The notes under the pieces were generated by a model. The model did not search any database and had not been told where the DNA came from. It saw only the letters and a list, made by a program, of their open reading frames with translations. The translations under genes were made by a program, and so were the position numbers. From an uncultured Planctomycetota bacterium (GTDB lineage Bacteria > Planctomycetota > Planctomycetia > Gemmatales > Gemmataceae), in assembly GCA_963784995.1 (NCBI GenBank), contig CAWATZ010000006.1:264853-328852 (forward strand): a DNA stretch of 64,000 nucleotides, read 5' to 3'. Shown here one piece after another: positions 1,572 to 24,062 of this stretch (position 1 is its first letter; the number at the start of each line of letters is the position of its first letter).

Positions 1572-3987
1572 ATGCGCAGCGGATCGTGGTTGGTGTTCGC
1601 CCTCCTTCTTTCTCCTGGAGCTTCCGCGGCCCCGGTTGTCGCGGATCTCGACTCCGTCAGCCAGGACGAGCAGACGCTCCGCTCGGCCGGCCTGAGTGTC
1701 GATGGCCCGTCCCTGGTGGAGTTGTTCCGGCAACGGGCCCAGCTGGAAGCCGACCCGGAAGGGCTCAACACCTGGATCAGGCGTCTGAACGACGCGGACC
1801 CTGAAGTGCGTACTCGTGCCGCAAACCGGCTGCTGGGCCGAGGCACGGTCGCCTTGCCCCTGCTGCGTCGCGCGGCCAACGACCTGGGCGAGCCGGAACT
1901 GGCCGGCCGGGCCCAGCACTGCATCGACTTGATCGAAAGGCAATCTCCGCCGACCGTGACGCCGGTCGCCGCCGTTCGCCTGCTTTTGCATCGCAAACCG
2001 GCCGGTGCGGTGGAAGCGCTGCTGGCCTATCTGCCGGCGGCCGAGACTCCCGCCCTGGTGGAGGAAGTGGCCAGTGCCCTGACAGCACTGGCTTATGCTG
2101 ACGACAAACCGCACCCTGCCTTGCTGGCAGCGCTGACCGACAACCTGCCGCTGCGTCGCGCCGTGGCCGCAAGCGCCCTGGCCGGCAAGGAGCATCCCCA
2201 GGCCCGGCAGGCCGTCCACAAGCTGCTGCGTGATCCCAGGCCGCTGGTCCGACTCCGCGTTCGCCCTGGCCCTGACCGAGGCCAACGATCTGGACGGCGT
2301 GCCCGTGCTGATTGATCTGCTGGCTGAGGTGGCCCCCCAACAGCACAAGCCCATCGAGGACCTGCTGAGCCGGCTGGCTGGCGGCTGGACGCCCACCACG
2401 CCCCTGTGTGATGAGGAGGCGGCCCGCCGCATTCGCCGCAGTGCCTGGGCTGGCTGGTGGCAGAACAGCGACGGCCCCGCTCTGCTGGCCCAGGTGCGAC
2501 GCCACGTGCTCAGCGGCAAGGACCAGGCGAAGGCGCTGGCCCTGATCGAGAAGCTGGGGGATGACTCCTTCGAGGTGCGCCAGACCGCCTCCGCGGCGTT
2601 GACCGAGTTCGGCGCCCTGGCCGTGCCGCTGCTGCGTCAGGCCAGCCGCAGCACCGATGCGGAACGGGCCCGGCGGGCCGAGACGTGTTTGCAGGAGATT
2701 GCCGACAAGGGCGGCAAACCGTTGCCGGAACCGGTCTTCCGGCTGCTGAGCCTGCGCAAGCCGGCCGGTGCCGCGGAGGCGTTGCTGGACTATCTGCCTC
2801 ATGCCGAGATCGAACAGCGCAGCGTCGAGGTGCGGCAGGCGCTGGCGGCCCTGGCGGTGCGCGAGGGTCGGCTTGAGCCAGCCCTGGTGCGGGCGCTGGC
2901 AGATCCATTGCCCTTGCGGCGACTGGCCGCTGCCGAGGCCATCCTGGCAGCAGGTGCCCTGGAGCAACGGGACGCCGTGCGCAAGCTGCTGCGGGACGCT
3001 GATCCGCTGGTGCGGCTGCGAACCGCCGTGGCCCTGGCCGTCAAGCGTGATCGGGAAGCAATCCCGGTGCTGATCGAGTCGCTGGCCGAGGAACCTTCCG
3101 ACGCCAGCGCCGAAGCGGAGGGACTGCTGTACCGTCTGGCTGGCCAAGGCGGGCCGAAACTCGAGCAGGCTGAGGGCGCGGCTGGTCGTCGCCAGCGCCG
3201 TGACGCCTGGGCTGCCTGGTGGAAGGAGGCCGGTTCGTTGGTCGATCTGGCCGTTCTGGAGAACCACACGCGCCTGCTGGGGTTCACGCTCCTGGCAATG
3301 GGGGTAAAGGATGGTCAGGTGCTGGAACTGGGCCGGGATGGCAAGCCACGCTGGATCATTACCGGGCTGGCAGCTCCGGTAGACGCCCACGTCCTGCCCG
3401 GAGACCGCGTTCTGATTGCGGAGTACGAGGGGAGCCGTGTGACCGAACGCGATTTCAAGGGCAACATCCTCTGGCAAAAGGATGGGTTGGCAGCCAGTCC
3501 GGTCAACGTGCAGCGTCTGGCCAACGGCAATACCTTTATCGCCACGGAGAACGAGTTGCTTGAGGTCGATCGCGCCGGCAAGACCGTCTGGAGTCAGGCT
3601 TTTCCGAACCTCGATGCGGCGTGCAAATCTCGGGATGGCAGCATCACCTGCCTGGCGTACGACCAATGCATTCGCCTCAGTTCCGCCGGGAAGGAACTGA
3701 AGCGTTTTCCATTCGGCGGCAGGCCGACGTACAAGAGCGCAATCGACGTGTCGGCCGACGGCCGGATCTTGATTGCACTGCACAACCAGGTATCGGAAGT
3801 GGACGGCGAAGGCAAGGTCCTCTGGCAGGCCTCGGCACTGGGAATCGCCACGGCCACGCACTTGCCCAACGGCCACGTGCTCGTTGCCGGCGGCTTCCGG
3901 GAGGTAATCATGGAACTGGATCGGGCGGGCAAGGTCGTCTGGGAACACAAGGCGGGGATGCGGGTCTGGCGGGCCCGGCGGCGCTGA
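1572..3987 (+). CDS. HEAT-repeat + PQQ-like beta-propeller protein, paralog copy 2; +1 frameshift near 2260 (extra C in LVRLRV|ALAL region) relative to copies 3 and 4
   Basis: ATG at 1572 preceded by AGGAG. N-terminal signal peptide MRSGSWLVFALLL. Two ORF-track pieces (1164..2315 and 2230..3987) join collinearly against copy 3. Confidence 0.7.
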
Positions 3988-4064: not shown

Positions 4065-6536
4065 ATGCGCAGCGGATCGTGGCTGGTGTTCACCCTCATT
4101 CTTGTCTGCGTGACCTCCCTGGCGCTCGGCCGCCAGCCTGGCAATTCTCCCCGAGGCCCAACTGCTGGGGGAGCTTCGGCATCCGCCCCAGCTGCCAGGA
4201 AGCCTCCCACGGTCAGCGAGGACGAAGAGGAACTCCGGTTGGTAGGCCTGCAAGTCGATGGTCCGTCCCTGGTGGAGTTCTTTCGGCAACGGGCCGCGGT
4301 CCCCGCCGACCCCAAAGGGCTCCAGCCCTGGATCAGGCGTCTGAACGATGTGGACCCCGAAGTGCGGACTCGTGCCGCACACCGGCTGCTGGGCCGAGGC
4401 ACGGTCGCCTTGCCCCTGCTGCGTCGCGTCGCCAATGACCTGGGCGACCCTGAACTCGCTGACCGAGCCCAGCACTGCATCGACTTGATCGAAAGGCGCT
4501 CTCCGACGAACGTGACGCCGGTCGCCGCCGTTCGCTTGCTTCTGCATCGCAAACCGGCCGGGGCCGTGGAAGCGCTGCTGGCCTATCTACCGACGGCTGA
4601 GTCTCCCGCCCTGGTGGAGGAAGTGAGCCGTGCCTTGACGGCAATGGCTTATGCCAACGAAAAGCCGCACGCCGCCTTGCTGGCCGCGCTCACCGACAAT
4701 ATGCCGCTGCGTCGCGCCGTGGCCGCAAGCGCCCTGGCCGGAAAGGACCATCCCGAAGCACGGCCAGCCGTCCGCAAGCTGCTGCGCGATTCCAAACCGT
4801 TGGTCCGTCTCCGCGTCGCTCTGGCGTTAGCCTCGGCCAACGACCTCGACGGTGTCCCCGTTCTGATTGAGCTGCTGGCCGAGGTCGTGCCACCGCGGGA
4901 CAAGCCCATCGAGGAACTGCTGGGCCGGCTGGCGGGCGACTGGGCACCGACCACGCCTCAGGGTGACGATGCGGTCGCACGCCGCATTCGCCGCGCCGCC
5001 TGGGCCAGCTGGTGGCGGAACAGCGATAGCCCCGCCCTGCTGGCCCAGATGCGTCGCCATACGCTCAGCAGCAGCGACCAGGCCAAGGTGCTGGCGCTGA
5101 TCGACAAACTGGGCGATGACTCCTTCGAGGTGCGGCAGACCGCCTCGGGAGCGTTGACCGAGTTCGGAACCCTGGCGATACCGCTGCTGCGCCAGGCCAC
5201 GCGCAGCACCGATGCGGAACGGGCGCGGCGGGCCGAGACGTGTTTGCAGGACATTGCCGACAGGGGCGGCAAACCCTTGCCGGAGCCAGTCTTGCGGCTG
5301 CTGAGCCTGCGTCAGCCAGCAGGGGCCGTGGAAGCCTTGCTGGACTATCTGCCCCATGCCGAAATCGAACACCACCGCGTCGAGGTCCGCAAGGCGCTGG
5401 CAGCCCTGGCGGTGCGTGCCGGCCGACTGGAGCCAGCCCTGGTGCGGGCGCTGGCAGATCCATTGCCGGGCCGCCGACTGGCCGCTGCCGAGGCCATCCT
5501 GGCAGCGGGCACCCTGGAGCAACGCGCTGCCGTGCGCAAGCTGCTGCGTGACACTGATCCGTCGGTGCGACTGCGGATCGCCGCGGCCTTGGCCGGCAAG
5601 CGCGAGCGCGAAGCGATCCCGGTGCTGATCGAGTTGGTGGCTGAAGAGTCCTCCGACGCCAGCGGCGAAGCGGAGGAAATCCTGTATCGCCTGGCCGGCG
5701 AAGGTGGACCAAAGGTCGAGCCAGACAGGAGTACGGCTGGCCGGCGCCAGCGCCGCGACGCCTGGGCCGCCTGGTGGAAGCAGGTCGCTCCCTCGGTCAA
5801 TCTGGGCGTTCTGGAGAACCACGTGCCCTTGCTCGGGTATACCCTGCTGGTGAATAACAAACAGGTGCTGGAACTGGACCAGGACGGCAAGCCGCGCTGG
5901 ATCATTAACAACCTTCCTACCCCGCTGGATGCCCACGTCCTTCCCGGCGACCGCGTGCTGATCGCGGAGTTCTACAGCAAGCGTGTGACCGAGCGCGATT
6001 TCCAGGGTGCCATCCTGTGGCAAAAAGAAGGGCTGGAAGACCATCCGGTCAACGTTCAGCGTCTGGCCAACGGCAATACCTTTATCGCAACTGTTAATGG
6101 ATTGCTCGAAGTCGATCGTGCCGGCAAGACCGTCTGGAGCAAGCCGTTTCCAAACCTCACCGCGGCGTGCAAATCTCGGGATGGCAGCATCACCTGCCTG
6201 GACGGCGACGGCCAGTGCATTCGCCTCAGTTCTGTCGGCAAGGAACTGAAGCGGTTTCCTTCCGGCGGCAGGCCGACGTACAAGAGCGCAATCGACGTGT
6301 CGGCCGATGGCCGGATCTTGATTGCGCTGCACAACCAGGTATCGGAATTGGACGCCGAGGGCAAAGTCCTCTGGCAAGCCCCGGCACCGGGAATCACCAC
6401 GGCCACGCACTTGCCCAACGGCCACGTGCTCGTTGCCGGCGGCTTCCGGGGGGTAATCATGGAGCTGGATCGGTCGAGCAAGGTTGTCTGGGAATCCAAG
6501 CCCGGGCAGGGGGGCATCCGAGCGCGGCGGCGCTGA
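4065..6536 (+). CDS. HEAT-repeat + PQQ-like beta-propeller protein, paralog copy 3 (intact, 823 aa, signal peptide)
   Basis: ATG 4065 after caggagagcctcc. Uninterrupted frame. HEAT (PBS-lyase-like) repeats followed by a PQQ-like propeller. Confidence 0.85.
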   Translation: MRSGSWLVFTLILVCVTSLALGRQPGNSPRGPTAGGASASAPAARKPPTVSEDEEELRLVGLQVDGPSLVEFFRQRAAVPADPKGLQPWIRRLNDVDPEVRTRAAHRLLGRGTVALPLLRRVANDLGDPELADRAQHCIDLIERRSPTNVTPVAAVRLLLHRKPAGAVEALLAYLPTAESPALVEEVSRALTAMAYANEKPHAALLAALTDNMPLRRAVAASALAGKDHPEARPAVRKLLRDSKPLVRLRVALALASANDLDGVPVLIELLAEVVPPRDKPIEELLGRLAGDWAPTTPQGDDAVARRIRRAAWASWWRNSDSPALLAQMRRHTLSSSDQAKVLALIDKLGDDSFEVRQTASGALTEFGTLAIPLLRQATRSTDAERARRAETCLQDIADRGGKPLPEPVLRLLSLRQPAGAVEALLDYLPHAEIEHHRVEVRKALAALAVRAGRLEPALVRALADPLPGRRLAAAEAILAAGTLEQRAAVRKLLRDTDPSVRLRIAAALAGKREREAIPVLIELVAEESSDASGEAEEILYRLAGEGGPKVEPDRSTAGRRQRRDAWAAWWKQVAPSVNLGVLENHVPLLGYTLLVNNKQVLELDQDGKPRWIINNLPTPLDAHVLPGDRVLIAEFYSKRVTERDFQGAILWQKEGLEDHPVNVQRLANGNTFIATVNGLLEVDRAGKTVWSKPFPNLTAACKSRDGSITCLDGDGQCIRLSSVGKELKRFPSGGRPTYKSAIDVSADGRILIALHNQVSELDAEGKVLWQAPAPGITTATHLPNGHVLVAGGFRGVIMELDRSSKVVWESKPGQGGIRARRR

Positions 6537-6612
6537 CCGACTTGTCCATTCCGCCGGGCAGGGTTACGATCATCCTTTAGGACCACTCACATCCAGGCCA
6601 GGAGTGCCTCCC

Positions 6613-9087
6613 ATGCGCAGCGTATCGTGGCTGGTGTTCGCCCTCGTTCTTTTCTGTGTGGCTTCCGCAGGGCAGGGCCATTCTCCCAGAGCCTCAGCTG
6701 ACCCGGTGGGGTCTTCGTCAGCCGACCCGGTTGCCGGGGACCTCAGCTCCGTCCGCGAGGACGAAGAGAAACTCCGCTCGGCGGGCCTGCCTGTCGATGG
6801 TCCGGCCCTGGTGGAGTTGTTCCGACAACGGGCCGCGGTGGCGACCGATCCGGAAGGGCTCCAGCCCTGGATCAGGCGTCTGAACGACGCGGACCCGGAA
6901 GTCCGCGTTCGTGCGGCCCGCCGGCTGGTGGGCAAAGGCACGACGGCCGTGCCTTTGCTGCGTCGGGCGGCCAACGATCTGGGCGAGCCCGACCTGGCCA
7001 GCCGGGCCCGGCACTGCCTCGCATTGATCGAAAGGCAATCTCCGCCGACCGTGACGCCGGCCGCGGCCGTTCGCCTGCTGGCCCATCGCAAACCCGCCGG
7101 GGCGGTGGAAGCCCTGCTCGCCTACCTGCCGGCTGCGGAGACTCCCGCCCTGGTGGAGGAAGTGGCCAGTGCCCTGACCGCCCTGGCTTATCCGGGCGAC
7201 AAACCGCACGCTGCCTTGCTCGCGGCCCTCACCGACAACCTGCCGCTGCGTCGTGCCGTGGCCGGCTGCGCCCTGGCCGGCAAGGACCACCCCGAAGCAC
7301 GGCTGGCCGTCCGCAAGCTGCTGCGTGATCCCAAAGCGCCGGTCCGTCTCCGCGTTGCCCTGTCCCTGACCGAAGCCAACGATCTGGAAGGGGTGCCCGT
7401 CCTGATCGATCTGCTTGCCGAGGTGGTGCCCCCGCGGGACAGGCCCATCGAGGAGCTGCTCCAGCGGCTGGCGGGCGCCTGGACGCCGGCCACGCTGCCG
7501 AGTGACGATGCGGTCGCACGCCGCATTCGCCGCGACAGCTGGGCCAGTTGGTGGCAGAACAGCGATGGTCCCGCCCTGCTGGGCCAGCTGCGCCGGCACG
7601 TACTCAGCGGCAAGGACCAGGCCCGGGTGCAGGCCCTGATTGTCAAGTTGGGCGACGACACTTTTGAGGTGCGCCAGACGGCCTCCGGGGCGTTGACCGA
7701 GTTCGGAGCATTGGCCGTGCCGCTGCTGCGGGAGGCCACGCGCAGCACCGATGCGGAACGGGCGCGGCGGGCCGAAACGTGTCTGCAGGAGATTGCCGAC
7801 AAGGGCGGCAAACCGTTGCCGGAACCTGTCTTGCGGCTGCTGAGCCTGCGCAAGCCGGCCGGTGCCGTGGAGGCCTTGCTGGATTATTTGCCCCATGCCG
7901 AGGTCGAGGAGCGCAGCGACGAGGTGCGGAAGACGCTGGCCGCCCTGGCCATGCGTGAGGGCCGGTCAGAGCCGGCCCTGGTGCGGGCGCTGGAAGATCC
8001 CCAGCCGTTGCGGCGGCTGGCCGCTGCCGAGGCCATCGCGGCCGAAGGCGCCCTGGAGCAACGCGCCGCCGTGCGCAAGCTGCTGCGTGACAGTGATCCG
8101 CGCGTCCGGCTGCGCACGGCCCTGGCCCTGGCGATGAAGCGCGACCCCGAAGCGATCCCGGTCCTGATCGAGTCGGTGGCCGAGAAGCCAGCCGACGACA
8201 ACGCCGCGGCGGAGGAAATGCTGTACCGGCTGGCCGGCGACCACGTTCCGAAGCTCGAACCGGCTTCGGACGCTGCCGGCCGCCGCCAGCGCCGCGACGC
8301 CTGGGCGGCCTGGTGGAAAGAGGCCGCGGGCTCGGTCGATCTGGCCGTCCTGGAGGACCAGCCAGCCCAGCTGGGGTACACCCTGGTGGTGCTGGGGCGC
8401 GACAACGTCGTGCTGGAGCTGGGGCGCGACAACAAGCCGCGCTGGACCATCAGGGGGCTGGCGGAACCGGTGGATGCCGTCGTTCTGCCGGGCAACCGCG
8501 TGCTGATTGCCGAGCACTCCGGCGATCGGGTCACCGAACGCGATTTCCAGGGGAACGTCCTGTGGCAAAAAGATGGGCTAGGTGGTGGTCCGTTCAACGC
8601 CCAGCGGTTGGCCAACGGCAACACCTTCATCGCCGCGGAGAACGGCTTGTTCGAGGTCGATCGCAGTGGCCAGACGGTCTGGCGCCGGCCGTTTCCGAAC
8701 CTCAAGGCCGCGTACAGATCTCGGGATGGGAGCATCGCCTGCCTGGACGCCGCCGGGCAGTGCGTGCTGCTCTCCGCGGCCGGCAAGGAACTGAAACGGT
8801 TTGCCACGGGATTTGTGCCGTCGTCTCCCGGCGGCATCGAGGTGACCGCCAACGGCCGGATCCTGATCGCCCAGCAGAGCAGGAACAGGGTGATCGAAGT
8901 GGACACGGACGGGAAAATCCTCTGGCAAGCGGCGGCGCCGGGAATCTCCCGGGCCACGCGCCTGCCCAGCGGGCACACCCTGGTCGCCAGCCTGGACGGG
9001 GAACGCCTGACCGAACTGGACCCGGCAGGCAAGGTCATCTGGGAGTACAAGCCCGGCAAGGCAGTCTCGAGAGCACGGCGGCGCTGA
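6613..9087 (+). CDS. HEAT-repeat + PQQ-like beta-propeller protein, paralog copy 4 (intact, 824 aa, signal peptide)
   Basis: ATG 6613 (MRSVSWLVFALVLF) after aggagtgcctcc. Collinear with copy 3. Confidence 0.85.
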   Translation: MRSVSWLVFALVLFCVASAGQGHSPRASADPVGSSSADPVAGDLSSVREDEEKLRSAGLPVDGPALVELFRQRAAVATDPEGLQPWIRRLNDADPEVRVRAARRLVGKGTTAVPLLRRAANDLGEPDLASRARHCLALIERQSPPTVTPAAAVRLLAHRKPAGAVEALLAYLPAAETPALVEEVASALTALAYPGDKPHAALLAALTDNLPLRRAVAGCALAGKDHPEARLAVRKLLRDPKAPVRLRVALSLTEANDLEGVPVLIDLLAEVVPPRDRPIEELLQRLAGAWTPATLPSDDAVARRIRRDSWASWWQNSDGPALLGQLRRHVLSGKDQARVQALIVKLGDDTFEVRQTASGALTEFGALAVPLLREATRSTDAERARRAETCLQEIADKGGKPLPEPVLRLLSLRKPAGAVEALLDYLPHAEVEERSDEVRKTLAALAMREGRSEPALVRALEDPQPLRRLAAAEAIAAEGALEQRAAVRKLLRDSDPRVRLRTALALAMKRDPEAIPVLIESVAEKPADDNAAAEEMLYRLAGDHVPKLEPASDAAGRRQRRDAWAAWWKEAAGSVDLAVLEDQPAQLGYTLVVLGRDNVVLELGRDNKPRWTIRGLAEPVDAVVLPGNRVLIAEHSGDRVTERDFQGNVLWQKDGLGGGPFNAQRLANGNTFIAAENGLFEVDRSGQTVWRRPFPNLKAAYRSRDGSIACLDAAGQCVLLSAAGKELKRFATGFVPSSPGGIEVTANGRILIAQQSRNRVIEVDTDGKILWQAAAPGISRATRLPSGHTLVASLDGERLTELDPAGKVIWEYKPGKAVSRARRR

Positions 9088-9088
9088 A

Positions 9089-9176
9089 GTCCCCGGGTTG
9101 CGCTGCGCTCCACCCGGGGCTTTAGTCCCGAAAGCAGGAGTAAAGCCCCGGGTGGAGCGCAGCGCAACCCGGGGAC
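9089..9176. repeat. Perfect 36-bp-arm inverted repeat (16-nt loop) immediately after the stop of HEAT/PQQ copy 4; putative terminator / member of the CGCTGCGCTC palindrome family
   Basis: gtccccgggttgcgctgcgctccacccggggcttta (9089-9124) is the exact reverse complement of 9141-9176. Confidence 0.7.
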
Positions 9177-9686
9177 TCGAAGACCCTCACCGGATCACCT
9201 TGGGCTCAACCCAGCACGGGAACCCCTGCCACTCGATTTCCGCTACCCCTGCGAACCGCCTTGTCTCCGCGAGCATCGCCGCAGCGGCGAACACCTCGCG
9301 CAGGCGTTCTAAAGAGGAGGCATCCGACGCGGTAAGGATTGCTGGAGGCCCCTCCCTCGATTCGCTTCTCGTCATGGCATGCTCGTCTTGCTGTGACCGA
9401 ACACCCCCGTTCAGCCGCCGGGGCCGCCGGGAGGGGACTGAACGTCTCGGGAAGCCCCGGTTGGCTGCAACGTCTCGTTCAGCGGCGCCAGGCTTTCATT
9501 TGGGGAATTGTATCGCCAGGATCGCCGGCCCGGCAAGCACAGGCGCCGGCTCACTCTGGCAAATGCTGTTCGCAGACGATGATCTATACTTGAGTGCTCT
9601 GGCTGCGACGACCGGCCGCGAGTGAAATCGCGCCCTGGCGGAGGGCGCGGCCCAGTTCACGCGCGGGTTCGAGCTGTGGAGGCGCA

Positions 9687-10799
9687 ATGAACATCCTGCT
9701 TGTCATCCTCGTTTCCTGGTTTGCTGTCGGCGCCGGGCTCGCCAAATTCGGCTTGTGGTGTATGAAAACGCATGAAAAGGAGATGATTGAAAAGGATCCT
9801 CTATGCCAGATATTGGGCTGTATTCCGCCCCCGATCAAATGGAGCGTTGTTGCAGTGCTGGTGCTGTTCGGCCCCCTGGTGTTGCTGTGGGCTGTTTACG
9901 ATGCGATCCAGGAAAGCCGCAAGGAAAAGGATGAAACCGACGCTCCAGGTGCAACCCCGGTTGCTGCACCGGCGCCTGAGATTGACCCGCGTGTCGGGTG
10001 CATGGTGCTGTACGGCCTGTTTGGCGCCGCCTTGATCGCCTGGGTCTGGGCAAACGAGCATCCTGGGAAGTCCTTTAGCACGTTCCTGGAGAAACAAGCC
10101 CGCACGATGGGATTCTGGCTCGTCGCCTTCGTCTTGCCCGGCCTCGTGGTAAACTGGAGGAAGCCTTTGCGGAGCCTGCAATTTCCGGCGTTGCTCTTGC
10201 CACTCTACCTGGTGGGAGTGGTGGTCCCTGAGGTCGTGGCGATGACGGTGGGGTGGGAGGGTGGCTGGGCCCTCGGCATCGCCGGCGCGCTCGCAGGGGG
10301 ATTGGCGGGGGCGGCGACGGGCAGGCTCAACCCGTGGATAATGGGGGAGTCCGAAAGAGAGTATCCGAGTACACGTCAGAGGGCGGTCTTGCTGCCGATC
10401 ATGGTCGCCGTGTTGTTCGCCGTCTACGGCGCCCACAACTGGGCAAGCACGTGGCTGACGCCGGACTACGTCTGGACCCTGGGGATGTTCCCGCTCCTCT
10501 TCGCCTTCCTGGGCGGCCTGGTAGGCAGGCCTGTGCTGGGTATGCTCACGGCGTTGCCCCTGGCGCTCGTGCAACTGGTCCCGCTCGTCGCCTTGCTGAC
10601 GGTGGGCTGGGACGGCGGCTGGATCCTCGGCGTCGCCGGCGCGGCCGCGGGGGCCGTGGCGGGGGCGGTGAACGGCTTCTTGTATGACCGATGGATCATG
10701 CCGGAGTACGACAAGCGTCGTACGGGCAAGAGCGCGATCCCGCCGCCGGGCTCGACCGAGGGGCCGGGATCGAGCGGGTCGCTAGCCGAGCGCTCCTGA
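9687..10799 (+). CDS. Hypothetical polytopic membrane protein with internal duplication and glycine-zipper motifs (TVGWEGGWALGIAGALAGG / TVGWDGGWILGVAGAAAGA)
   Basis: ATG 9687 (MNILLVILVSWF). Multiple hydrophobic segments. Two repeated GxxxG-rich modules. Confidence 0.55.
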   Translation: MNILLVILVSWFAVGAGLAKFGLWCMKTHEKEMIEKDPLCQILGCIPPPIKWSVVAVLVLFGPLVLLWAVYDAIQESRKEKDETDAPGATPVAAPAPEIDPRVGCMVLYGLFGAALIAWVWANEHPGKSFSTFLEKQARTMGFWLVAFVLPGLVVNWRKPLRSLQFPALLLPLYLVGVVVPEVVAMTVGWEGGWALGIAGALAGGLAGAATGRLNPWIMGESEREYPSTRQRAVLLPIMVAVLFAVYGAHNWASTWLTPDYVWTLGMFPLLFAFLGGLVGRPVLGMLTALPLALVQLVPLVALLTVGWDGGWILGVAGAAAGAVAGAVNGFLYDRWIMPEYDKRRTGKSAIPPPGSTEGPGSSGSLAERS

Positions 10800-11186
10800 A
10801 GGCAGATGACGCTCCGGCGTCGCAGCAATTGGCAACTTCGCCTCCATCGACTGCGACGCGGCAGGTGAGTCAACTGCTCGTCGGGCGCCGACGAACGGCT
10901 ACCAGCCGGTGTCTAACCTGAACGAGATCAGCGCCCCCGGCTTCAATAGCGCCTGGCCTTTCTCGGTGAACTCGACGAGGAGCCCATCAGGTTGCCGCTC
11001 GACCCGGAACAGTGTCCTGTCCACCGGCCCCCGCGCCAGGGGATCTTCAACCAGCGCGTAGTAAGTGCCGTCCAGGCCCAGCCTATCGTCGCGTAAACCG
11101 TCCCGGACGCCAACACAGAGAGACAGCGGATCGCCCGTGCAGCCGTAGTCCGACGGGATGCCGGTCAGTCGGAACTTGACCGGTAT

Positions 11187-11602
11187 TTAACGCCGATTTC
11201 CACGGAGCGGTAATTCCTCACACGCCAACGAGAAAGCGACAAAGTAGGTCATGATTATCCGTGTACAATTCCTGGGGAAACCCCTTCTTCCGGACAGACC
11301 AGTGGTGAGATGGAGCATCCCGTGTGAGTCTTTTCACGGGAGAAACAGGGAACTTCCGGGACCCAAAATCTAGCGATCCGTTTAGTGGCTTTCTGATTCG
11401 CCTGCGCCGACGCACTGGGAATACAGCCGATTGCGGTCGTGCTACTCCAATAGCGACAATGGGGAGAGTATAAATTAACATTGCCAACTCGGCCTCCGGA
11501 TTACCGGAAATACTTCACAAGGCAATCCGTATTCCCCGAAAAACCCTGACCTCCCCCCGAAAAAGTGTGAGGAATTACCGCCCCGTGGAAATCGGCGTTC
11601 AA
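11187..11602. mobile_element. 416-bp element bounded by ~37-bp near-perfect terminal inverted repeats (TTAACGCCGATTTCCACGGAGCGGTAATTCCTCACAC ... GTGTGAGGAATTACCGCCCCGTGGAAATCGGCGTTCAA); MITE-like, lower-GC interior, no convincing ORF
   Basis: Left arm 11187-11223, right arm 11565-11602, 1-2 mismatches. Interior ORF 11218..11487 looks spurious. Confidence 0.4.
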
Positions 11603-11665
11603 GAGAAGCGGGTTGTGCCCCGCCTGCAGACGGGGCTGCCATACTCTGCTCCGGTCACAACCTGA

Positions 11666-13231
11666 TCACCACCTTGCACCCCGGCAGCGCCTCGCGCAGG
11701 CGCTGGCCCCTTCCTCGGTGATCGCCGTACCGAAGGCGTAGACAGACCGCAGTTTCTTGAGGCCGCGCAAGTGGACGAGGGCGCCGTCGCCCCGGTTCCC
11801 CACGTAGCTGAGCGTCAGGGAGCAAAGGTTCTCCAGATCCGCCAGCGCCGCCAGGCCGTCGTCTGTAACCCCGTGCAGGTTCTCCAACCGGAGTTGCTCC
11901 AGGCCGGCCAGGGCGGCGACGTGGCGGATGCCCGCGTCGGTGACGTGGTCACAGCCGTTGAGCTTCAGCTCGCGCAGCCCCTGGAGCCCGCGCAGCAAGC
12001 CCAGAGAGTCATCGGTCAGGTGGCGGCAGAACACCAGGTCGAGGGCGCGCAGGGAAGGCAGCTCTGCCAGGACAGCGAACCCGGAGGCAGAGATCCGTTC
12101 GTTGTGGCCCATCTCGAGGCGCTCCAGGACCGGGGCGGTGGTCAGGCGGGCCAGGGCAGCGTCGGAAAGGCCGCTGCACTCCGAGCAGTCGAGTTCGCGC
12201 AGGGAAGGCAGGCGTGCGATCGTCTCGAAGCCTTCAGCGCCGGGCCTGGTGCGGCGCACGTCCAGCTTGCGCAAGCTCTCCAGGCCCGCCAGGTGGGCGA
12301 CCCCAGAGTCGGATAGGCCGGTGCAGTAGGCGAGGTCCAGCACCTCGAGACGCGACATGCCGGCCACGCAGGCGAACCCTGCCGCGGTCAGGTTGGCGCA
12401 GAAGCAGAGATGGAGCTTCCGCAAATTGACCAGGGCGCGGAGGCGAGCGGCGCCGGTGTCTCCGAGGGACTTGCTGGCGCGAAGGTCGAGGTGTTGCAAG
12501 CCAGTCAGGTCGCCAACGTGAGCGAGGGCGGCGTCGGTCCGCGGGGTCTTCAGCCCCAGGGACAAGGAGCGGAGGCGGGAAAGGTCAGCCAGCGGCTCCA
12601 GACCGGCCGGGTCGAGGGCCGGGTCGTCCAGGCTCAGGTCCAGAGAGTGGAATCGGGGCAAGCGGCGCAGGTGGCGGAGCCCGGGACCGCGGACGGGCTT
12701 GAGCGAACCCAGGCTCAACTCTTGCAAGCGCTCGAGTTCACCCAGAAAGGCGAGGCCGTCGTCGCTGAGGTGGGACGAGCCCCACAACGACAGCGTCCGC
12801 ACCGCCCCGACCCGGTCTGCCGTCAAATCTCCGTTGCGGGCGGACTGGACGCTCAGGCCCTCGACCCACCCGGAGCCGAGGGCCGCTCCCGCTGCCACCG
12901 GGAAGGATTTGCCGGCCAGGGAGCGCCCCAGCAAGTTGGCGGAAAGGAGGCCGTCGCGAACGTACCAGGATCCCGAGGGCCGACCCAGCCAGGGCCCCCG
13001 GAGCGACTCGAGGATCGCGTCGGCACGGACCCGGTCGGGGCTGCGGGCATCCCAGGGAAGCCGGTCGCTGGTGGCCGAGAGGCGCACCATTTCCCCGCGT
13101 GGGTCGCCGCGTCGGTCGAGCCAGTCGGCCAGCCCCAGACGGGGTGCAAGCTCTTCGGGCGCGTCGTGGCAGGTGGCCAGCAGGGCCATTTCTTCTGCGG
13201 TGGGGACAAAGTGGGCACTGCGGCGAGCCAT
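11666..13231 (-). CDS. Leucine-rich-repeat (CC-type LRR) protein with N-terminal repeat-companion domain (TIGR02996-like, ...LADWLDRRGDPRGEMVRL...)
   Basis: Many LxxLxLxxC LRR units. N-terminus matches the ADWLEE-GDP-RAEFIRL type motif that I recall as TIGR02996 of Gemmata repeat proteins. Confidence 0.75.
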   Translation of the reverse strand: MARRSAHFVPTAEEMALLATCHDAPEELAPRLGLADWLDRRGDPRGEMVRLSATSDRLPWDARSPDRVRADAILESLRGPWLGRPSGSWYVRDGLLSANLLGRSLAGKSFPVAAGAALGSGWVEGLSVQSARNGDLTADRVGAVRTLSLWGSSHLSDDGLAFLGELERLQELSLGSLKPVRGPGLRHLRRLPRFHSLDLSLDDPALDPAGLEPLADLSRLRSLSLGLKTPRTDAALAHVGDLTGLQHLDLRASKSLGDTGAARLRALVNLRKLHLCFCANLTAAGFACVAGMSRLEVLDLAYCTGLSDSGVAHLAGLESLRKLDVRRTRPGAEGFETIARLPSLRELDCSECSGLSDAALARLTTAPVLERLEMGHNERISASGFAVLAELPSLRALDLVFCRHLTDDSLGLLRGLQGLRELKLNGCDHVTDAGIRHVAALAGLEQLRLENLHGVTDDGLAALADLENLCSLTLSYVGNRGDGALVHLRGLKKLRSVYAFGTAITEEGASACARRCRGARW

Positions 13232-13514
13232 CGTTGTGGAACCTCCAGGTCAGGCGAGCGCGGTTGGTGCGGCACGTGTTCCCCGCCACACAATGATGGC
13301 TCGTCGCGCACTCCGAGTCGCCCGAGTAAAGGATACTGTCGTGCCAGAAATGTTGCAGCACCGGGTTGGGCGATCGCACCTGGGCTGCCCTTCCCAAGGA
13401 GGCTGCGTTGTCCTGGGGCTTTCGTTCCAGGGAAGATACTGCTGGCAGAACAGCAGGTCCTGTCAACCCGCTCCGCGGATCGCAATACGGCTACATCGGC
13501 GACCTCGTGTCGCA

Positions 13515-13610
13515 CCCGAACGCCGAAATTCAGCAGCGGCGGCCGCTCCTGAGACCTGGAATTACAGGAGCCATGTTGCGGCCGCCGTCTGCTGAAATGG
13601 TTGGTTCGGC
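13515..13610 (-). other. attC-like recombination site (96 bp) of the cassette carrying the aspartic-protease gene pair
   Basis: Read on the minus strand: GCCGAAC (R'') overlapping the stop codon, imperfect inverted repeat CAGCAGACGGCGGCCGC / GCGGCCGCCGCTGCTGAA, terminal GTTCGGG (R'). Confidence 0.55.
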
Positions 13611-13984
13611 TACCTGTGCCGGAGCCGTTTGATCGTTACTTTGCCGCGGTAACGAACTTGCATCTTCAACTCGTGACCGCGCAACAGCCTCATACCGACC
13701 AGGGGATCGGTGTCTGCTTCATCGACCAGAATTTGACGTACTTTGCTGTCCCAGACCACTTTACCCACGTACACCCGGAAAACGCAGGTGCTGCCGTCGG
13801 CCAGTGTTGCCCGTTGCGTGCTTTGCCAGCGCAGGCCCAAGAGCGTAATCAGAGCCGGCGGTAAGGTGAGCGCTCCGGTATATCCCGAGTCAATGACCGC
13901 TTCAATCTCTTGCTCGCGGCCCTTGCGACCTCGAACTGTCAAGCGAATACGGGCTTCGTCGGCCTTGACCGCGCCAGTAATCAT
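13610..13984 (-). CDS. Retropepsin-like (clan AA) aspartic protease, ~124 aa (DSGYTG active-site-like motif)
   Basis: Motif ...VIDSGYTGALTLP... Overlaps the upstream partner gene by 4 bp. Confidence 0.65.
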   Translation of the reverse strand: MITGAVKADEARIRLTVRGRKGREQEIEAVIDSGYTGALTLPPALITLLGLRWQSTQRATLADGSTCVFRVYVGKVVWDSKVRQILVDEADTDPLVGMRLLRGHELKMQVRYRGKVTIKRLRHR

Positions 13985-14259
13985 GGCAAGTCCTGGCGTA
14001 GTTGTCGCCCGCCGAATCTTCGCGTCGAGCGAGAGCCGATGCGCACCATCCAGATTTGTGCCTCGGGCAGGCGACGCCGCAGTTTGTTGCCTGCCTTCAT
14101 CTCATCGGCAGCAATTTCGTACTGACCCGTTTCTATGTCGATGGCGAGAAACTTGCCTGTGTCTTGGGCCGTCAGCTTGGGAAGAATCTCCTTTTCGTAG
14201 ATGGCATCGCCACGCCTCGCGAATTCTTCTTTGCTGTAGCGCGGTTGTAAGGTTGCCAT
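13981..14259 (-). CDS. Small partner protein (92 aa, DUF5678-like?) co-transcribed with the clan AA aspartic protease
   Basis: 4-bp overlap (translational coupling). ...KFLAIDIETGQYEIAADE... No confident family assignment. Confidence 0.55.
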   Translation of the reverse strand: MATLQPRYSKEEFARRGDAIYEKEILPKLTAQDTGKFLAIDIETGQYEIAADEMKAGNKLRRRLPEAQIWMVRIGSRSTRRFGGRQLRQDLP

Positions 14260-14493
14260 GCGTTTACTCCCGGAGCCGCTCTCGTATGAGGTTGCATTGT
14301 TCCCTGTTCATTTTACTGATCGACGTCCGCAGTCGCCAGCCCTAAACCGAGGGCCCATTTGATACTCCGCTTGGAGGTAATCTACCCTGCCCCCATTTCT
14401 CTCCAACGAAAAGAAGAAAAAAACCTGCAGCATTCCGGAGTGCGCCTATTGACAAAAGAGGTCAGTGAGCGGTGCGCCCGACGTTGTTTCGCC

Positions 14494-14883
14494 CTATAGC
14501 TCGAACCACGACACGGCCTCCGACATCTGTTTAGCGCGAAAGAACTCCTTGGCGACGGAGCATGCCGTCTCGAACGGGACGATGAAATCGTTTGGCGTTT
14601 GCTCGCCGCTTGCCGGATCGCAACCTCGATACACAAGCGTCGTCCATCCGCCTTCGGGCAAGCCGTGACCGCCGAGACACCGGAAGCCGGGGTGGCCATC
14701 CCGCGGGAAATAGTGGACATCGGCCACATCCCCGCTGACGCGGAGTGCCAGGGCGGGATACTTTTCCTCGTTGGGGGTCAGCCAGAATAATCCGCCTCCG
14801 CGATCGTCGCGCCAAGCAAGAGCTGCTTCCAAGCTCTTGTCGTCCTCCGCGTGCCACGTTTGACGATACCCGTCTATTCGCAC
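14494..14883 (-). CDS. Cassette-like small protein (129 aa), possibly Imm1-family polymorphic-toxin immunity protein
   Basis: ...AWRDDRGGGLFWLTPNEEKYPALALRVSGDVADVHYFP... resembles Imm1 signatures from memory. Small, minus strand, inside the attC array. Confidence 0.5.
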   Translation of the reverse strand: MRIDGYRQTWHAEDDKSLEAALAWRDDRGGGLFWLTPNEEKYPALALRVSGDVADVHYFPRDGHPGFRCLGGHGLPEGGWTTLVYRGCDPASGEQTPNDFIVPFETACSVAKEFFRAKQMSEAVSWFEL

Positions 14884-14898
14884 TGGAATCCTCTTCGC

Positions 14899-14997
14899 TG
14901 CGAACGAAAAGGATAAGCTGCCGGGGCCGCCTGCAAGACCTCCATGCCGCGCGAAACCAGGATGGCGGCCCCGGTCAGCTTCATCCGGTGGTTCGGC
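14899..14997 (-). other. attC-like recombination site (99 bp) downstream of the lipoprotein cassette gene
   Basis: Minus strand: GCCGAAC ... inverted repeat GCTGACCGGGGCCGCC / GGCGGCCCCGGCAGC ... GTTCGCA. Same architecture as 13515-13610 and 15684-15782. Confidence 0.45.
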
Positions 14998-15040
14998 GGC
15001 CTGCCACCCTGTGTTGGCCCAAGCCGGAATTGCCCCCTGG

Positions 15041-15658
15041 CTACTTCAACCCGTCCGTGAGACCTGGCTCCTTTTCTTGCAGATGTTTCAGCAGCACTTC
15101 CGCATAGCGCTCGACGTCCGCTGTCTCCTCAAGCTTCGGCACCTCAGCGGGCAGGGCGATCTTCTTCTGCTGATAGGTAGGCGAAGCGGCTGTCAGGTCC
15201 AGCACGAAGACTCGGCCGGCGGCAGGATCAACCTCCTTACCGCCCACGGTAAGCACCTCTTTCGTGACCGCCGTGCGTTCCTTATTTAGCTCGTAATGGG
15301 CCGCCGCTTCAATGCGCTTGCCGTTGATCGTGCAGACGCTTTTGACTTCCACATCGCCCTGGCTGCGCGCGTAGCCGTCCAGGCCGAGCGAGCTTTCGTT
15401 GGATGTGGGCGGCAGCTTGAAAAGAATGATGTAGGTCAGTTGCTGGGAGGTCTTGGGCTTCGTCACCGTGCCAAACGTCACCCCAGGCTTGCCGGGGAGG
15501 ACCACGAGATGGCCGCCCGAAACCGCGAAATCGTTCGTAGCGGAGAGGAAACCGGCCGTGGTAATTTTTGGCTGAGGAGCGACACGATTGCCACAGCCGA
15601 CGGCGCCCGTCAGGGCGATAAGCAGCCCAAAACCATGCCAAGCACAACGTGTGTTCAT
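15041..15658 (-). CDS. Hypothetical lipoprotein (signal peptide + lipobox LTGAVGC), cassette-encoded
   Basis: MNTRCAWHGFGLLIALTGAVGCGN... Minus strand between two attC-like sites. Confidence 0.65.
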   Translation of the reverse strand: MNTRCAWHGFGLLIALTGAVGCGNRVAPQPKITTAGFLSATNDFAVSGGHLVVLPGKPGVTFGTVTKPKTSQQLTYIILFKLPPTSNESSLGLDGYARSQGDVEVKSVCTINGKRIEAAAHYELNKERTAVTKEVLTVGGKEVDPAAGRVFVLDLTAASPTYQQKKIALPAEVPKLEETADVERYAEVLLKHLQEKEPGLTDGLK

Positions 15659-15683
15659 CCGGAATTGTCTCCCAGTGCTGCGA

Positions 15684-15782
15684 GTCGAACGCCCCGCTCA
15701 GCAGCCGGCTCACGCGGGCCAGACAGCGAAGCTCGACAAGACTCACTCGCGTGGCCGGTCTGCTGCAGCTTTTGGTTCGGCG
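15684..15782 (-). other. attC-like recombination site (99 bp) 8 nt downstream of the stop of ORF 15791..16348
   Basis: + strand: GTCGAACGCC-ccg-CTCAGCAGCCGGCTCACGCG ... CGCGTGGCCGGTCTGCTGCAGC-TTTTGGTTCGGC. Nearly identical ends to site 13515-13610 (GAACGCC...CAGCAGC / TCTGCTG...TTGGTTCGGC). Confidence 0.55.
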
Positions 15783-15790
15783 TTCCTTTG

Positions 15791-16348
<558 letters not shown>

Positions 16349-17048
16349 CCACGCTACTCCAAGAGGGCAGACCAGACGAGAGGTCTTTGTGTCTCAGGGA
16401 CGCACCAAGGTAGCCGCATTACGCGGCCCTCGACATCTGCATTTCCCTGTGAGGTCTGTTGGCTCTTGTTTGGAGATAACGGCGGGCAGTCCATTCGCCA
16501 TCCGCTCCGTTACGTCGTTGTTGTCACCCTGGCGGACCTTCACCCTGTCTGACCCATTACAGCTCAGCGTTCGGCTACTACGCCGCCTCCGCCATCCTGC
16601 CCGCTCGCTGGCATTGTCGCGTCTGTTGGCCCGGTTGGACTCCAGGTACAGATGCAGCGGTTTAGGATTTCCCACCTTCCGTAAGCACAGACTGTAGAAC
16701 CCTTAGCTGCCTGCTCCACGCCGGGTGGCTGGGTGACAACACGTTTGGCGTTCGGAAACCAAACGTCCCTCCACCATACCTTTTGGTCCAGGTGATGCAG
16801 CCGTTGCACCTGTTATCACTTACGACGCTCACTCGCAGGTTTCTCGCGTCAGCATCGGTTCAGGGTTCGACACGCAGCCACTTTCGGCTGGCAGCCGGTG
16901 TTCTTTGTCAGCAGGCTTCCCACCTTACCCTTTGCCAAAGGGGAACGCAGGCTGCTCAACCCTTACACCGTTGTCATGGTATAGCTCCTTCAGAGCAATC
17001 TGTACATACGTTAAGTGGCGCACCCGAACTTGTGATTAGGCTGACCGG

Positions 17049-17206
17049 CCGGTCAGCATATTTCTCCCGGTCAGCATATTTCGCCTGGTCTCGCTATCAA
17101 GGCTCCGGTCAGCCTATTTCCGCTTCCCGGTCCGCCTAGCAAGGCGTCGGTCAGCCTATTTCCAGCTGCCCGGTCAGCGTATTTTTCCCCGGTCAGCCTA
17201 TCACGG
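17049..17206. repeat. Array of seven direct repeats CCGGTCAGC[A/C]TATTTC (16-18 bp, spacing 0-22 bp), preceded by perfect palindrome CTGACCGGCCGGTCAG (17041-17056), about 120 bp upstream of intI
   Basis: Units at 17049, 17067, 17105, 17127, 17147, 17170 and 17189. Non-coding. Could be IntI accessory sites in attI or regulator binding sites. Confidence 0.6.
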
Positions 17207-17242
17207 TTTGTCCCCCAGTTCAATTTTTTTCTTTTTTTCTTC

Positions 17243-17272
17243 TTGACATCGTGACAGAGAAAAGTTAATGAT
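17243..17272 (+). promoter_or_regulatory. Sigma70-like promoter (TTGACA-N18-TAATGA) for intI in an AT-rich island
   Basis: TTGACA at 17243-17248, TAATGA at 17267-17272. The only AT-rich stretch in the region. RBS AGGAGG at 17312-17317. Confidence 0.35.
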
Positions 17273-17276
17273 CTCG

Positions 17277-17291
17277 TGTTCATATTGAACA
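17277..17291. promoter_or_regulatory. Perfect 15-bp palindrome TGTTCAtatTGAACA between the -10 element and the intI RBS; candidate operator (LexA-type?)
   Basis: Perfect 6-3-6 palindrome overlapping the predicted transcription start. I recall integron integrases being commonly SOS-regulated. Confidence 0.35.
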
Positions 17292-17323
17292 AAGAGTCAC
17301 ATTCCCTGTTCAGGAGGAAAGCC

Positions 17324-18142
17324 ATGTCTGATGATCGCGGTCCGTCCCCAGAGTCGTCCGCCCAGCCATCGCCGCCGCGCTTGCTCGACCAGTTGTGTCA
17401 AGTCGCACGGAAGCGTGGCCATGCCGAATGGACTGTGGCCGACTACGTCAAGTGGGTCCGCCGCCTGGTCCGCTTCCACGGCCAGCGCCATCCCCGGGAG
17501 CTGGGTCTTGCGGAAGTGTCCCAGTTCCTGGAGTCGGTTGCCCAGACGGAGAAAAACCCAGTCCGGGCCATCGCCGCCAGCCGGGAGGCCCTCGATTTCC
17601 TGTATCGCGAGGTGCTGTGCCTGGACCTGGGAGAGCTGCCCTGGCCGAGGCCGCCCCGGCTGCTCGACCAGGTCCGCCAGGTGCTGCGCGTCCGCCACTA
17701 TGCCCGCCGTACCGAGGACTGTTACCTCGGCTGGATCCTCCGCTTCATCTTCTTTCACAAGAAACGTCACCCCCGCGACATGGGCGCTGCCGAGGTGGAG
17801 CAGTTCCTCACCGACCTGGCGGTCCGCGGCCACGTCTCGGCCAGCACGCAAAACCAGGCGCTGAACGCCCTGGTGTTCCTGTATCAGCAAGTATTGGAGA
17901 TCGACCTGGGCCGGCTGGACGCGGTGCGGGCGCGGCGGCCGAAACGGCTGCCCGTGGTGCTGGCTCCCGAGGAAGTCGCGGCGGTGCTGCAACGCATCGA
18001 GGGAGGGGACGGCGTCTTCCAGTTGATGGCCCGGCTGCTCTACGGCTGCGGTCTGCGGCTGCTGGAATGCTGTCAGCTGCGTGTCAAGGACGTCCAGCTG
18101 GCCCGTGGGCAGATCGTCGTGCGCGGCGGCAAGGGGAACAAG
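17324..18142 (+). pseudogene. intI: Integron integrase intI remnant: IntI1-like N-terminal half with a tandemly duplicated, diverged N-terminal domain, truncated after GKGNK (no catalytic R-H-R-Y domain)
   Basis: ...HYARRTEDCYLGWILRFIFFHKKRHPRDMGAAEVEQFLTDLA...VSASTQNQALNALVFLYQQVL...RRLPVVLAPEEVAAVLQRIEGGDGVFQLMARLLYGCGLRLLECCQLRVKDVQLARGQIVVRGGKGNK aligns closely with IntI1 residues ~20-175. No frame downstream encodes a tyrosine-recombinase catalytic domain. Confidence 0.8.
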
Positions 18143-18228
18143 GAAGTAGCTGCCGTTGGGCAGGGTGCAACAGGAACAAGACCCAGGGATGGTAGCCGGG
18201 CACCGTCTGCCTGCCCGACAGCTCCTGG

Positions 18229-23126: not shown

Positions 23127-24062
23127 TCAACCCTGCTCGGTCCCTCGCGGATGGAAGCGCTGGTGAATGGCCTTGAGCCGGTCGCGGTCCACGTGGGTGT
23201 AGCGCTGGGTGGTCTGGATGCTGCTGTGGCCGAGCAGCTCCTGGACGGTGCGCAGGTCGGCGCCGCCGGCCAGCAGGTGCGTGGCGAAGCTGTGTCGCAG
23301 CGTGTGCGGACTGACGCGGGCGTTCAGGCCGGTGCGGCGGACGTACTTCTTGACCACCACCCAGAGCATCTCGCGCGTCAGTTGCCGGCCGCCCCGGCTG
23401 ACGAAGACCCATTCCGTCTCGGGTGCGGTCTGGACCAGCGAGGGCCGTTGCTGTTCCAGGTAGGTGCGCAGGGCGTGGATGGCGGGCTTACCGATCGGCA
23501 CGATGCGCTGCTTGCTGCCCTTGCCGAAGCATTTGAGGAAGGACGAGTCCAGATGCAGGTCGGTCAGCTTGAGCCCGACCACCTCCGAGGCCCGCGCGCC
23601 GGTGGCGTACAGCGTCTCCAGGATGGCCCGGTCGCGCAGGTAAAAGCGATCCTGCGACAGGGGGGCTTCCAGCAGCCGGGTCACCGCCTCCGGGCTGAGC
23701 ACCTGCGGAATGCGGGCCCACAGGCTCGGGGAGCTGAGCAGATCGACCGTGCCGGTGGTGGTGCGCTCCTCCAGGCGCAGGAAGCGGTAGAACATCTTGA
23801 GCGAGACCAGGTGCCGGGCCTGGCTGGCCGGCGCCAGCCCTTCGGTGCGGAGGAACTCGACGTAGTCGGTCAGCTCGCGGAGGTTGGGCAGCAGGTAATT
23901 GGCAACGCCGCCGCCGGCCACCCAGTGGAGGAACCGATCCAGGTCGCGCGTGTAGGCCAGGTAGGTGTTGTTCGCCAGGCCGCGCTCGCCCTGGACGTAG
24001 TGGCGAAAGGCCTGGATGTCGTCGTTGAGAGCGGTAAAGCGGGCGGTCTCGTCGGTGGGCAT
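23127..24062 (-). CDS. xerD: Tyrosine recombinase XerC/XerD family
   Basis: Full catalytic domain ...ARASEVVGLKLTDL...GKGSKQRIVP...HTLRHSFATHLLAGGADLRTVQELLGHSSIQTTQRYTHV. Confidence 0.85.
   Translation of the reverse strand: MPTDETARFTALNDDIQAFRHYVQGERGLANNTYLAYTRDLDRFLHWVAGGGVANYLLPNLRELTDYVEFLRTEGLAPASQARHLVSLKMFYRFLRLEERTTTGTVDLLSSPSLWARIPQVLSPEAVTRLLEAPLSQDRFYLRDRAILETLYATGARASEVVGLKLTDLHLDSSFLKCFGKGSKQRIVPIGKPAIHALRTYLEQQRPSLVQTAPETEWVFVSRGGRQLTREMLWVVVKKYVRRTGLNARVSPHTLRHSFATHLLAGGADLRTVQELLGHSSIQTTQRYTHVDRDRLKAIHQRFHPRGTEQG

Follow-up and report, generated by a model that had tools for sequence, protein, structure and literature searches.

A 64,000-nt stretch of contig CAWATZ010000006.1 from an uncultured Planctomycetota bacterium, analysed as a whole and hereafter called the window, raises the question of what kind of element is represented by three imperfect inverted repeats located at 13515-13610 (site 1), 14899-14997 (site 2), and 15684-15782 (site 3), each placed at or shortly after the stop codon of a small gene on the minus strand. 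The three sites very likely represent attC recombination sites belonging to a sedentary chromosomal integron of a Gemmatales/Gemmataceae-type planctomycete. This identification, put forward by an earlier sequence-only reading of the same DNA, is supported by (i) the predicted fold of the sites, (ii) their confinement to one array, (iii) the linkage of the same family to integron integrase genes (intI) in related genomes, and (iv) the neighbouring attI site and intI remnant.

On the plus strand, all three sites display the same order of elements, comprising 5'-CGAAC, a spacer, a 19-bp imperfect stem, a loop, the returning stem, and GGTTCGGC-3', within a total length of 96-99 nt. The CGAAC motif occupies positions 13517-13521, 14901-14905, and 15686-15690, with GGTTCGGC at 13603-13610, 14990-14997, and 15774-15781, respectively. 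The cassette genes run on the minus strand, the plus strand being the attC bottom strand; read in the cassette direction, the cores appear as GCCGAAC(C) ... GTTCG(G/C/A), with R'' = GCCGAAC and R' = GTTCGGG in site 1. The R'' core of site 1 overlaps the TAG stop codon of the protease open reading frame (ORF) at 13610-13984, the stop codon at 15791 is separated by 9 nt from the core of site 3, and that at 15041 by 43 nt from the core of site 2. The shared architecture described in the sequence-only reading is thus found at coordinates exact to within 1 nt, both the GCCGAAC and the GTTCG(G/A/C) cores occur in all three sites, and the reported spacing of 0-43 nt past the stop codons agrees with the overlap and the two distances measured here. 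The strings given as common to sites 1 and 3, GAACGCC..CAGCAGC and TCTGCTG..TTGGTTCGGC, are likewise present.

Plain pattern counts do not separate these sites from chance: the loose pattern CGAAC-N55-85-GGTTCG gives 4 matches versus 1.7 expected, a number equalled by 15 of 100 shuffles (not significant), and neither the counts of GGTTCGGC nor those of CGAAC-N-GGTTCG alone show any excess. The analysis therefore relies on two covariance models, R1, derived from an alignment (A2) of the three sites and their common structure, and R2, derived from 24 family members and used to scan the window with all filters off. The R2 matches, all on the plus strand, comprise 14896-15000 (93 bits), 13512-13613 (83.6 bits), 15681-15784 (79.6 bits), and, as a fourth and degenerate copy, 9393-9486 (61.9 bits), the E-values of the first three extending from 1e-18 to 1e-22. 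On the minus strand, the same four positions score only 22-37 bits, including 37.4 bits at site 1, 30.8 bits at site 2, and 25.6 bits at site 3, a gap that defines the orientation of the sites, with the bottom strand on the plus strand in each case. The best unrelated match, a palindrome within a gene at 46112, reaches 26 bits. The family in the window therefore consists of four co-oriented copies in a single block. Rfam contains no attC family, and the Rfam scan of the window returned only the intron discussed below.

The structure predicted for the bottom strand comprises a 5-bp R box (CGAAC/GTTCG), an unpaired spacer, a 19-bp stem, and a variable loop, the stem being broken on its 3' arm by two extrahelical bases, one always T and the other usually C. 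Folded as single-stranded DNA, the three sites reach -28.8 to -33.4 kcal/mol, with z-scores of -2.0 to -6.2 relative to shuffled sequences (-32.1 kcal/mol and z -5.8 for site 1). The conservation of this structure was assessed in an alignment (A3) of 24 family members, representing 21 distinct sequences, in which standard pairs occupy 95.8% of the cells, versus 76% in shuffles and 21-44% when the pairing partners are slid; none of 500 shuffles attained the observed structure score. The 19-bp stem taken alone is paired in 95.5% of the cells, with compensatory two-sided changes at 15 of its 19 pairs, and the R-box cells are 97% paired, their pairs being almost invariant. In addition, AAC is found in 24/24 and GTT in 22/24 members, the extrahelical T in 24/24, and C at the second extrahelical position in 18/24. 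The column counts yield the bottom-strand consensus CCGAAC-GAC-N2-3-GCTCAGCWGCCGGGGC ... GCCCCGG-T-CWGCTG-C-AGC-GN-YTGGTTCGGCG, the unpaired stretches between the R and L boxes measuring 6-7 nt versus 5-6 nt. Across the family, the unaligned centre, comprising the inner stem and loop, varies from 12 to 44 nt and the total length from 93 to 124 nt. Both bulges reside on the 3' arm of the bottom strand, the one complementary to the cassette genes; VCR and attC-aadA7 carry their extrahelical bases on the R''/L'' arm of this strand.

According to the column counts of A3, the R box, spacer, stem, bulges, and loop match the parts of an attC site as described in the literature, which include an R box with conserved AAC/GTT triplets, an unpaired central spacer, an L box, extrahelical bases, and a variable terminal structure (PMC4889954). 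The sites of the window also fall inside the known range of attC length, about 57-141 bp. The tests proposed in the sequence-only reading, including bottom-strand folding and the exclusion of a generic repeat, speak for its attC assignment, the first recovering the R box, spacer, and long imperfect stem with two extrahelical bases on the 3' arm, and the second finding the family limited to one co-oriented array in the 64 kb. Its claim of VCR-like homogeneity holds for architecture and length, which are uniform, and is overstated for the sequence, since the three sites are only 45-55% identical overall in pairwise comparison (60-65% in the arms).

The same family accompanies integron integrase genes in related genomes. 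R1 identifies 24 matches (21 distinct) in the related loci, all of them upstream of intI on the intI-coding strand, and R2 identifies about 33 distinct sites, about 30 of which share this position and strand; the R2 exceptions are confined to two loci whose integrases are only 58-59% identical. The strict orientation relative to intI recurs in more than 10 independent loci. The genes called in the arrays of the relatives are small, located on the opposite strand, and number one per site. When the cassette region of the window is compared by BLAST with all related loci, matches occur at the attC sites only and never in the cargo, and this combination of conserved sites with unrelated cargo is the signature of cassette arrays. 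Since cassette arrays are places where contigs break, most loci obtained from the scan of genome contigs end at the integrase.

Two side observations concern these relatives. In locus L012, two attC sites (2558-2661 and 5583-5687) end in TGGATACTCA instead of TGGTTCGGCG, and the altered ends directly precede genes for IS110-family transposases at 2813-3931 and 5839-6957, which suggests that the R'' end of these attC sites is the target of an insertion sequence. A tRNA gene is located a few hundred bases downstream of intI in L017 (3877-3948) and L029 (5688-5759); the tRNA scan of the window returned none.

Upstream of the cassettes in the window, an attI site extends over 17024-17202 on the minus strand, with its core GTTCGG at 17029-17024 preceded by TAATCACAA. 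The site contains direct repeats of AATAKGCTGACCGG, six of them good and two degenerate, between 17202 and 17049, and a palindrome, GCTGACCGG/CCGGTCAGC, at 17057-17040, formed by an inverted copy of the repeat and followed by CTAATCACAAGTTCGG. The stretch ..GCTGACCGGCCGGTCAGCCTAATCACAAGTTCGG matches the palindrome-CTAATCACCNGTTCGG arrangement conserved upstream of intI in the relatives. Upstream of intI, a common plan recurs in more than 12 relatives (L001, L002, L004, L010, L012, L013, L014, L017, L026, L028, L029, L033, L035, and L059), comprising 3-9 direct repeats, the palindrome, CTAATCACC-N-GTTCGG, and then unrelated cassette sequence. The direct repeat itself varies between lineages, including TATGCTGACCGG, ATAGACAGACCGG, and ATCAACAGACCGG, with a period of about 18-23 nt. 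Judged from sequence comparison, this shared plan of repeats, palindrome, and core appears to define the attI of the integrase clade. The integrases of this clade comprise about 450 residues and carry two N-terminal SAM-like domains; speculatively, the additional SAM-like domain may use the 3-9 direct repeats as accessory binding sites. IntI proteins about 120 residues longer than usual have been described in a deltaproteobacterial clade (PMC2426708).

The intI gene of the window (17324-18145, plus strand) is divergent from the cassettes and truncated, encoding residues 1-274 of about 450. The fragment comprises two N-terminal SAM-like domains, visible as two matches to PF13495, and the first third of the catalytic domain (positions 3-68 of 172 in PF00589), ending after GKGNK; it matches positions 1-160 of 315 in TIGR02249, the family to which the relatives belong, with 255.9 bits, below the cut-off of 265. 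When the fragment is aligned with full-length relatives, themselves of about 450 residues (A1), homology stops right after GKGNK, at residue 274, and a tblastn search of all frames of the window with two full-length relatives recovered residues 1-274 only and no C-terminal part. Lacking its catalytic half, the protein cannot be active. Related integrases are encoded in Gemmatales/Gemmataceae genomes (74-83% identity) and in many metagenome entries annotated as 'integron integrase', the closest relative, P0001, being 92% identical. Pseudogenes represent about one-third of genomic intI genes (PMC2426708). Of the elements of a complete integron, the window retains an attI with a GTT core and no full-length intI bearing the catalytic residues and the additional IntI-specific domain, and the array of attC sites is probably frozen, unless another IntI encoded elsewhere in the genome acts in trans.

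In place of the 3' half of intI, the segment 18146-18517 (370 bp) contains a perfect 18-nt inverted repeat (18228-18245/18288-18305) and has no match elsewhere in the window or in the related loci. Between the intI start and attI, a palindrome TGTTC-N5-GAACA is located at 17276-17290 (TGTTCAATATGAACA on the minus strand), which may be an operator, possibly LexA-like; the relatives carry a different, TGTACA-containing motif in its place. Promoter and terminator scans of the window gave results not above shuffles. A second tyrosine recombinase, of 311 residues, is encoded at 23127-24062 (minus strand); its identity to the catalytic half of the clade IntI is about 31%.

With the architecture, the strand asymmetry, the covariation, and the association with intI and attI observed, the mechanism can be deduced from established integron biology. 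Each site closes one gene cassette on the minus strand, and the integron integrase would bind the folded bottom strand of the site and cut the 5' ..GAA|C motif between its A and C, equivalent to G|TT on the cassette strand; the crossover falls after the first base of the 7-bp core and before the second (PMC8876359). Recombination between two attC sites would excise cassettes, and recombination between attC and attI would insert them at the attI core (17029-17024). The present copy of the system is broken, with intI deleted after codon 274 and an intron inserted right after the attI core.

Cassette spans computed from the inferred crossover points divide the array into three predicted units on the minus strand: (i) cassette 1, from 17028 to 15690, of 1339 bp (579 bp without the intron), contains the intron and a 145-residue ORF; (ii) cassette 2, from 15689 to 14905, of 785 bp, contains a 205-residue ORF; and (iii) cassette 3, from 14904 to 13521, of 1384 bp, contains three ORFs. 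The 145-residue ORF (15791-16228) is taken to start with ATG at 16228, with GAGG 9 nt upstream, and the 205-residue ORF (15041-15658) displays an N-terminus resembling a lipoprotein signal; neither has a family match. In cassette 3, a 129-residue ORF (14494-14883) shows a weak Imm1-like match, a 92-residue ORF (13981-14259) has no match and overlaps the protease ORF, and the last gene (13610-13984) encodes a 124-residue clan AA aspartic protease, with matches to TIGR03698 (E 4e-14; 52.8 bits, just below the curated cut-off of 57.35) and PF13975 (E 2e-4; 22.4 bits, under the cut-off of 28.2). R2 finds nothing above 10 bits (E 1.8) in 13614-14895, in line with the earlier remark that no site separates the ORF at 14494-14883 from the protease pair; the 129-residue ORF and this pair therefore share one cassette. 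The guanine-plus-cytosine (GC) content of the cassettes, intron, and attI (13400-17400) drops to 0.55-0.64, the mean of the window being 0.66 and the flanking gene reaching 0.69-0.73, and this drop counts in favour of the attC reading.

The fourth site (9393-9486, bottom strand on the plus strand) scores 61.9 bits with R2 (E 7e-14), versus 22.5 bits on the minus strand, and 44.5 bits with R1. The 5' CCGAAC is preserved together with the stem and the bulged T, and GTTCAGC replaces GTTCGGC as the 3' core. The site is probably a decayed distal attC at the end of the array. A possible fourth cassette of about 4 kb on the minus strand would then run from 13520 to this site, containing a leucine-rich-repeat gene with a TIGR02996 domain, an element resembling a miniature inverted-repeat transposable element (MITE), and other ORFs. 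R2 without filters revealed no hidden attC in 9487-13514 or 14260-14493, and the flanks of the MITE-like element at 11186 and 11602, inspected by eye, do not join into an attC site. The leucine-rich-repeat protein (11666-13231, minus strand; 521 residues) is encoded between sites 1 and 4 with a host-like GC content of about 0.70, and its N-terminal TIGR02996 domain bears the NCBIfam short name rpt_mate_G_obs, apparently after Gemmata obscuriglobus. The MITE-like element (11186-11602, about 417 bp) lies between this gene and a small ORF and carries 38-nt terminal inverted repeats (94.7% match), with no further copy in the window. Beside site 4, a 90-nt near-perfect palindrome (9088-9177, 91% self-complementary) follows an 867-residue ORF ending at 9087.

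The attI core GTTCGG is directly followed by an ORF-less group II intron of 760 nt (16264-17023, minus strand), which points in the cassette direction and leaves no room for a reverse transcriptase. Domains V-VI match Rfam RF00029 at 16338-16264 (minus strand, 70.1 bits), and a group-II-D1D4-7 match reaches 29.6 bits, below the 34-bit cut-off. The intron starts with GTGCG at 17023 (...CACAAGTTCGG|GTGCGCC) and ends with ..CTAC (...CCTATCCCTAC|CCGCAGG). A second full-length copy, 86% identical, is present in L014 (1532-2284, minus strand), a different organism whose IntI is 75% identical to that of the window; five further loci carry the same sequence as L014, the overlaps checked being 99.96-100% identical. 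In L014, the intron follows an attC R' core (...GAGCTGGTCGTTCGG|GTGCGCC), again in the cassette direction, and the unrelated flanks of the two copies indicate two independent insertions at GTTCGG. The Rfam scan of 16 related loci found no other intron, and a BLAST search of plasmids with the intron returned essentially domain V alone and an unannotated fragment in a Deinococcus plasmid. A possible intron remnant at site 1 was considered and rejected: GTTCGGGTGCG recurs at 13511-13521, but the similarity ends after 9 nt and the 11-mer is within what chance would give.

Comparison of the window and L014 introns discloses 11 compensatory pair changes, two of them in domain VI. The hairpin loop UUUCCGAAC, complementary to GUUCGG, is kept in both copies on a stem with a G-C to A-U change, and this 6-nt CCGAAC loop is a candidate exon-binding site 1 (EBS1). 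Each copy also has an unpaired patch whose sequence changes together with the upstream exon, GUGAU being complementary to AUCAC (-13..-9) in the window and CCAG to CUGG (-12..-9) in L014, and this patch is a candidate EBS2 co-varying with the target exon. Group IIC-attC introns are antisense, insert into the bottom strand at TTGT/T, encode a reverse transcriptase, and have an intron-binding site 1 (IBS1) of 3-4 bp and no IBS2 (PMC7923331). Membership in this group was rejected for the present intron, which is in the sense orientation, follows GTTCGG on the top strand, contains no ORF, and shows a 6-nt candidate EBS1 together with a candidate EBS2.

These features allow a tentative joint reading, which we consider rather less than an even prospect, of an intron lineage specialised on the GTTCGG core and linked with the use of the attI repeats by IntI. 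Such a lineage may home into the top (sense) strand of attI and attC R' through EBS1 (CCGAAC) and a retargetable EBS2, and may owe its mobility to a reverse transcriptase provided in trans. If this were true, the intron would move about as the opening bases of a cassette, and the expression of the first cassette would depend on splicing. In the literature searched on integron introns, neither an ORF-less intron nor an insertion at attI is described.

Several observations weigh against the attC assignment. The recombination activity of the sites is itself deduced by analogy, and the local integrase lacks its catalytic half. The 7-bp cores GCCGAAC/GTTCGGN depart at position 4 from the class-1-derived RYYYAAC/GTTRRRY, and the extrahelical positions hold T and C, where VCRs have T and G. 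Site 4, in addition, folds no better than shuffled sequences (z about -0.2) and is located 4 kb from site 1, with intervening genes of host-like GC content. As for the cores, the position-4 departure is complementary on both sides, and Cury et al. name only the AAC/GTT triplets as more conserved core positions (PMC4889954). A different function of the same structures has also to be weighed, in which the sites serve another recombinase, such as the Xer-like enzyme encoded at 23127-24062, or are hairpins kept for the group II intron. In its favour are the intact sites next to a dead IntI, a second tyrosine recombinase encoded about 5-6 kb away, and the complementarity between the candidate EBS1 loop and the GTTCGG core. 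Nevertheless, in relatives with an intact IntI the sites are tied to intI by position and strand, and the Xer-like enzyme lies apart from the array and shares only about 31% identity with IntI; the intron, which only 2 of about 12 independent arrays contain, is a guest and does not account for the existence of the sites. We regard this possibility as very unlikely.

The positions of the sites just past stop codons and their GC-rich hairpins would also suit generic repetitive extragenic palindromes (REPs) or Rho-independent terminators, as would the terminator-like call overlapping site 3 and a loose core pattern that alone is not above chance. Such elements do not account for a family of four copies in 64 kb, gathered in one block beside intI and attI, nor for its strict orientation to intI across the independent loci; the stems are not followed by T-runs, terminators have no need for the conserved AAC/GTT cores and extrahelical T, and the true REP-like palindrome at 9088-9177 scores only 17-21 bits with R2. 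A REP or terminator origin is thus largely refuted, and the chance left to it is extremely small. An origin of the sites as terminal inverted repeats or remnants of MITEs carrying inverted cores is brought to mind by the element with 38-nt terminal inverted repeats at 11186-11602 and by the IS110-family elements inside the arrays of relatives. The sites share no sequence with the former, the IS110 copies of L012 interrupt sites and are hence also guests, and the window shows neither target-site duplications nor transposase-linked copies elsewhere, whereas the compensatory stem changes reflect selection on folding and not on sequence; the probability of this origin is practically negligible. 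The attC assignment therefore stands as the best explanation of the three sites.

Chromosomal integrons are known in Planctomycetes (PMC2426708, PMC4889954), though hardly described in detail, and a Planctomycetes-specific attC covariance model with a taxon-conserved structure is available (Ghaly et al. 2021, PMC8352920), within which the family described here probably falls, an overlap that we presume. The present analysis adds an attC family for Gemmataceae-type planctomycetes, including its consensus, a structure supported by covariation, the cognate attI, and the IntI clade. The attC sites belong to a recognised kind of element; the unusual side features of the locus are the sense, ORF-less intron and the repeat-rich attI paired with a double-domain IntI, both relevant to the mutual exploitation of introns and integrons. 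The window also captures a decaying integron, which has lost half of its integrase and kept attI and the attC sites intact.

Compared with known systems, the intron resembles integron-associated group II introns in being inserted at an integron core site following a hairpin (PMC7923331, PMC3001079), and its orientation, the same as that of the cassettes, recalls the IIB intron UHB.I2, which lies in the sense direction downstream of an attC (PMC7923331). It differs from the group IIC-attC introns, antisense at TTGT/T in R'' and equipped with a reverse transcriptase, in being ORF-less, sense, and placed after GTTCGG, with one insertion at attI and one at attC R'. The sites themselves resemble VCR-type attC families in their common orientation, uniform length, and ratio of one site per cassette ORF, as well as in the R box with AAC/GTT, the spacer, the imperfect stem, the bottom-strand extrahelical bases, the variable loop, and the divergent intI with attI. 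On the other hand, they are less uniform in sequence than VCRs (45-55% identity), are accompanied by only 3-4 cassettes and a truncated integrase, and display GCCGAAC/GTTCGGN cores in place of RYYYAAC/GTTRRRY, with extrahelical T and C. [quoted passage not shown]

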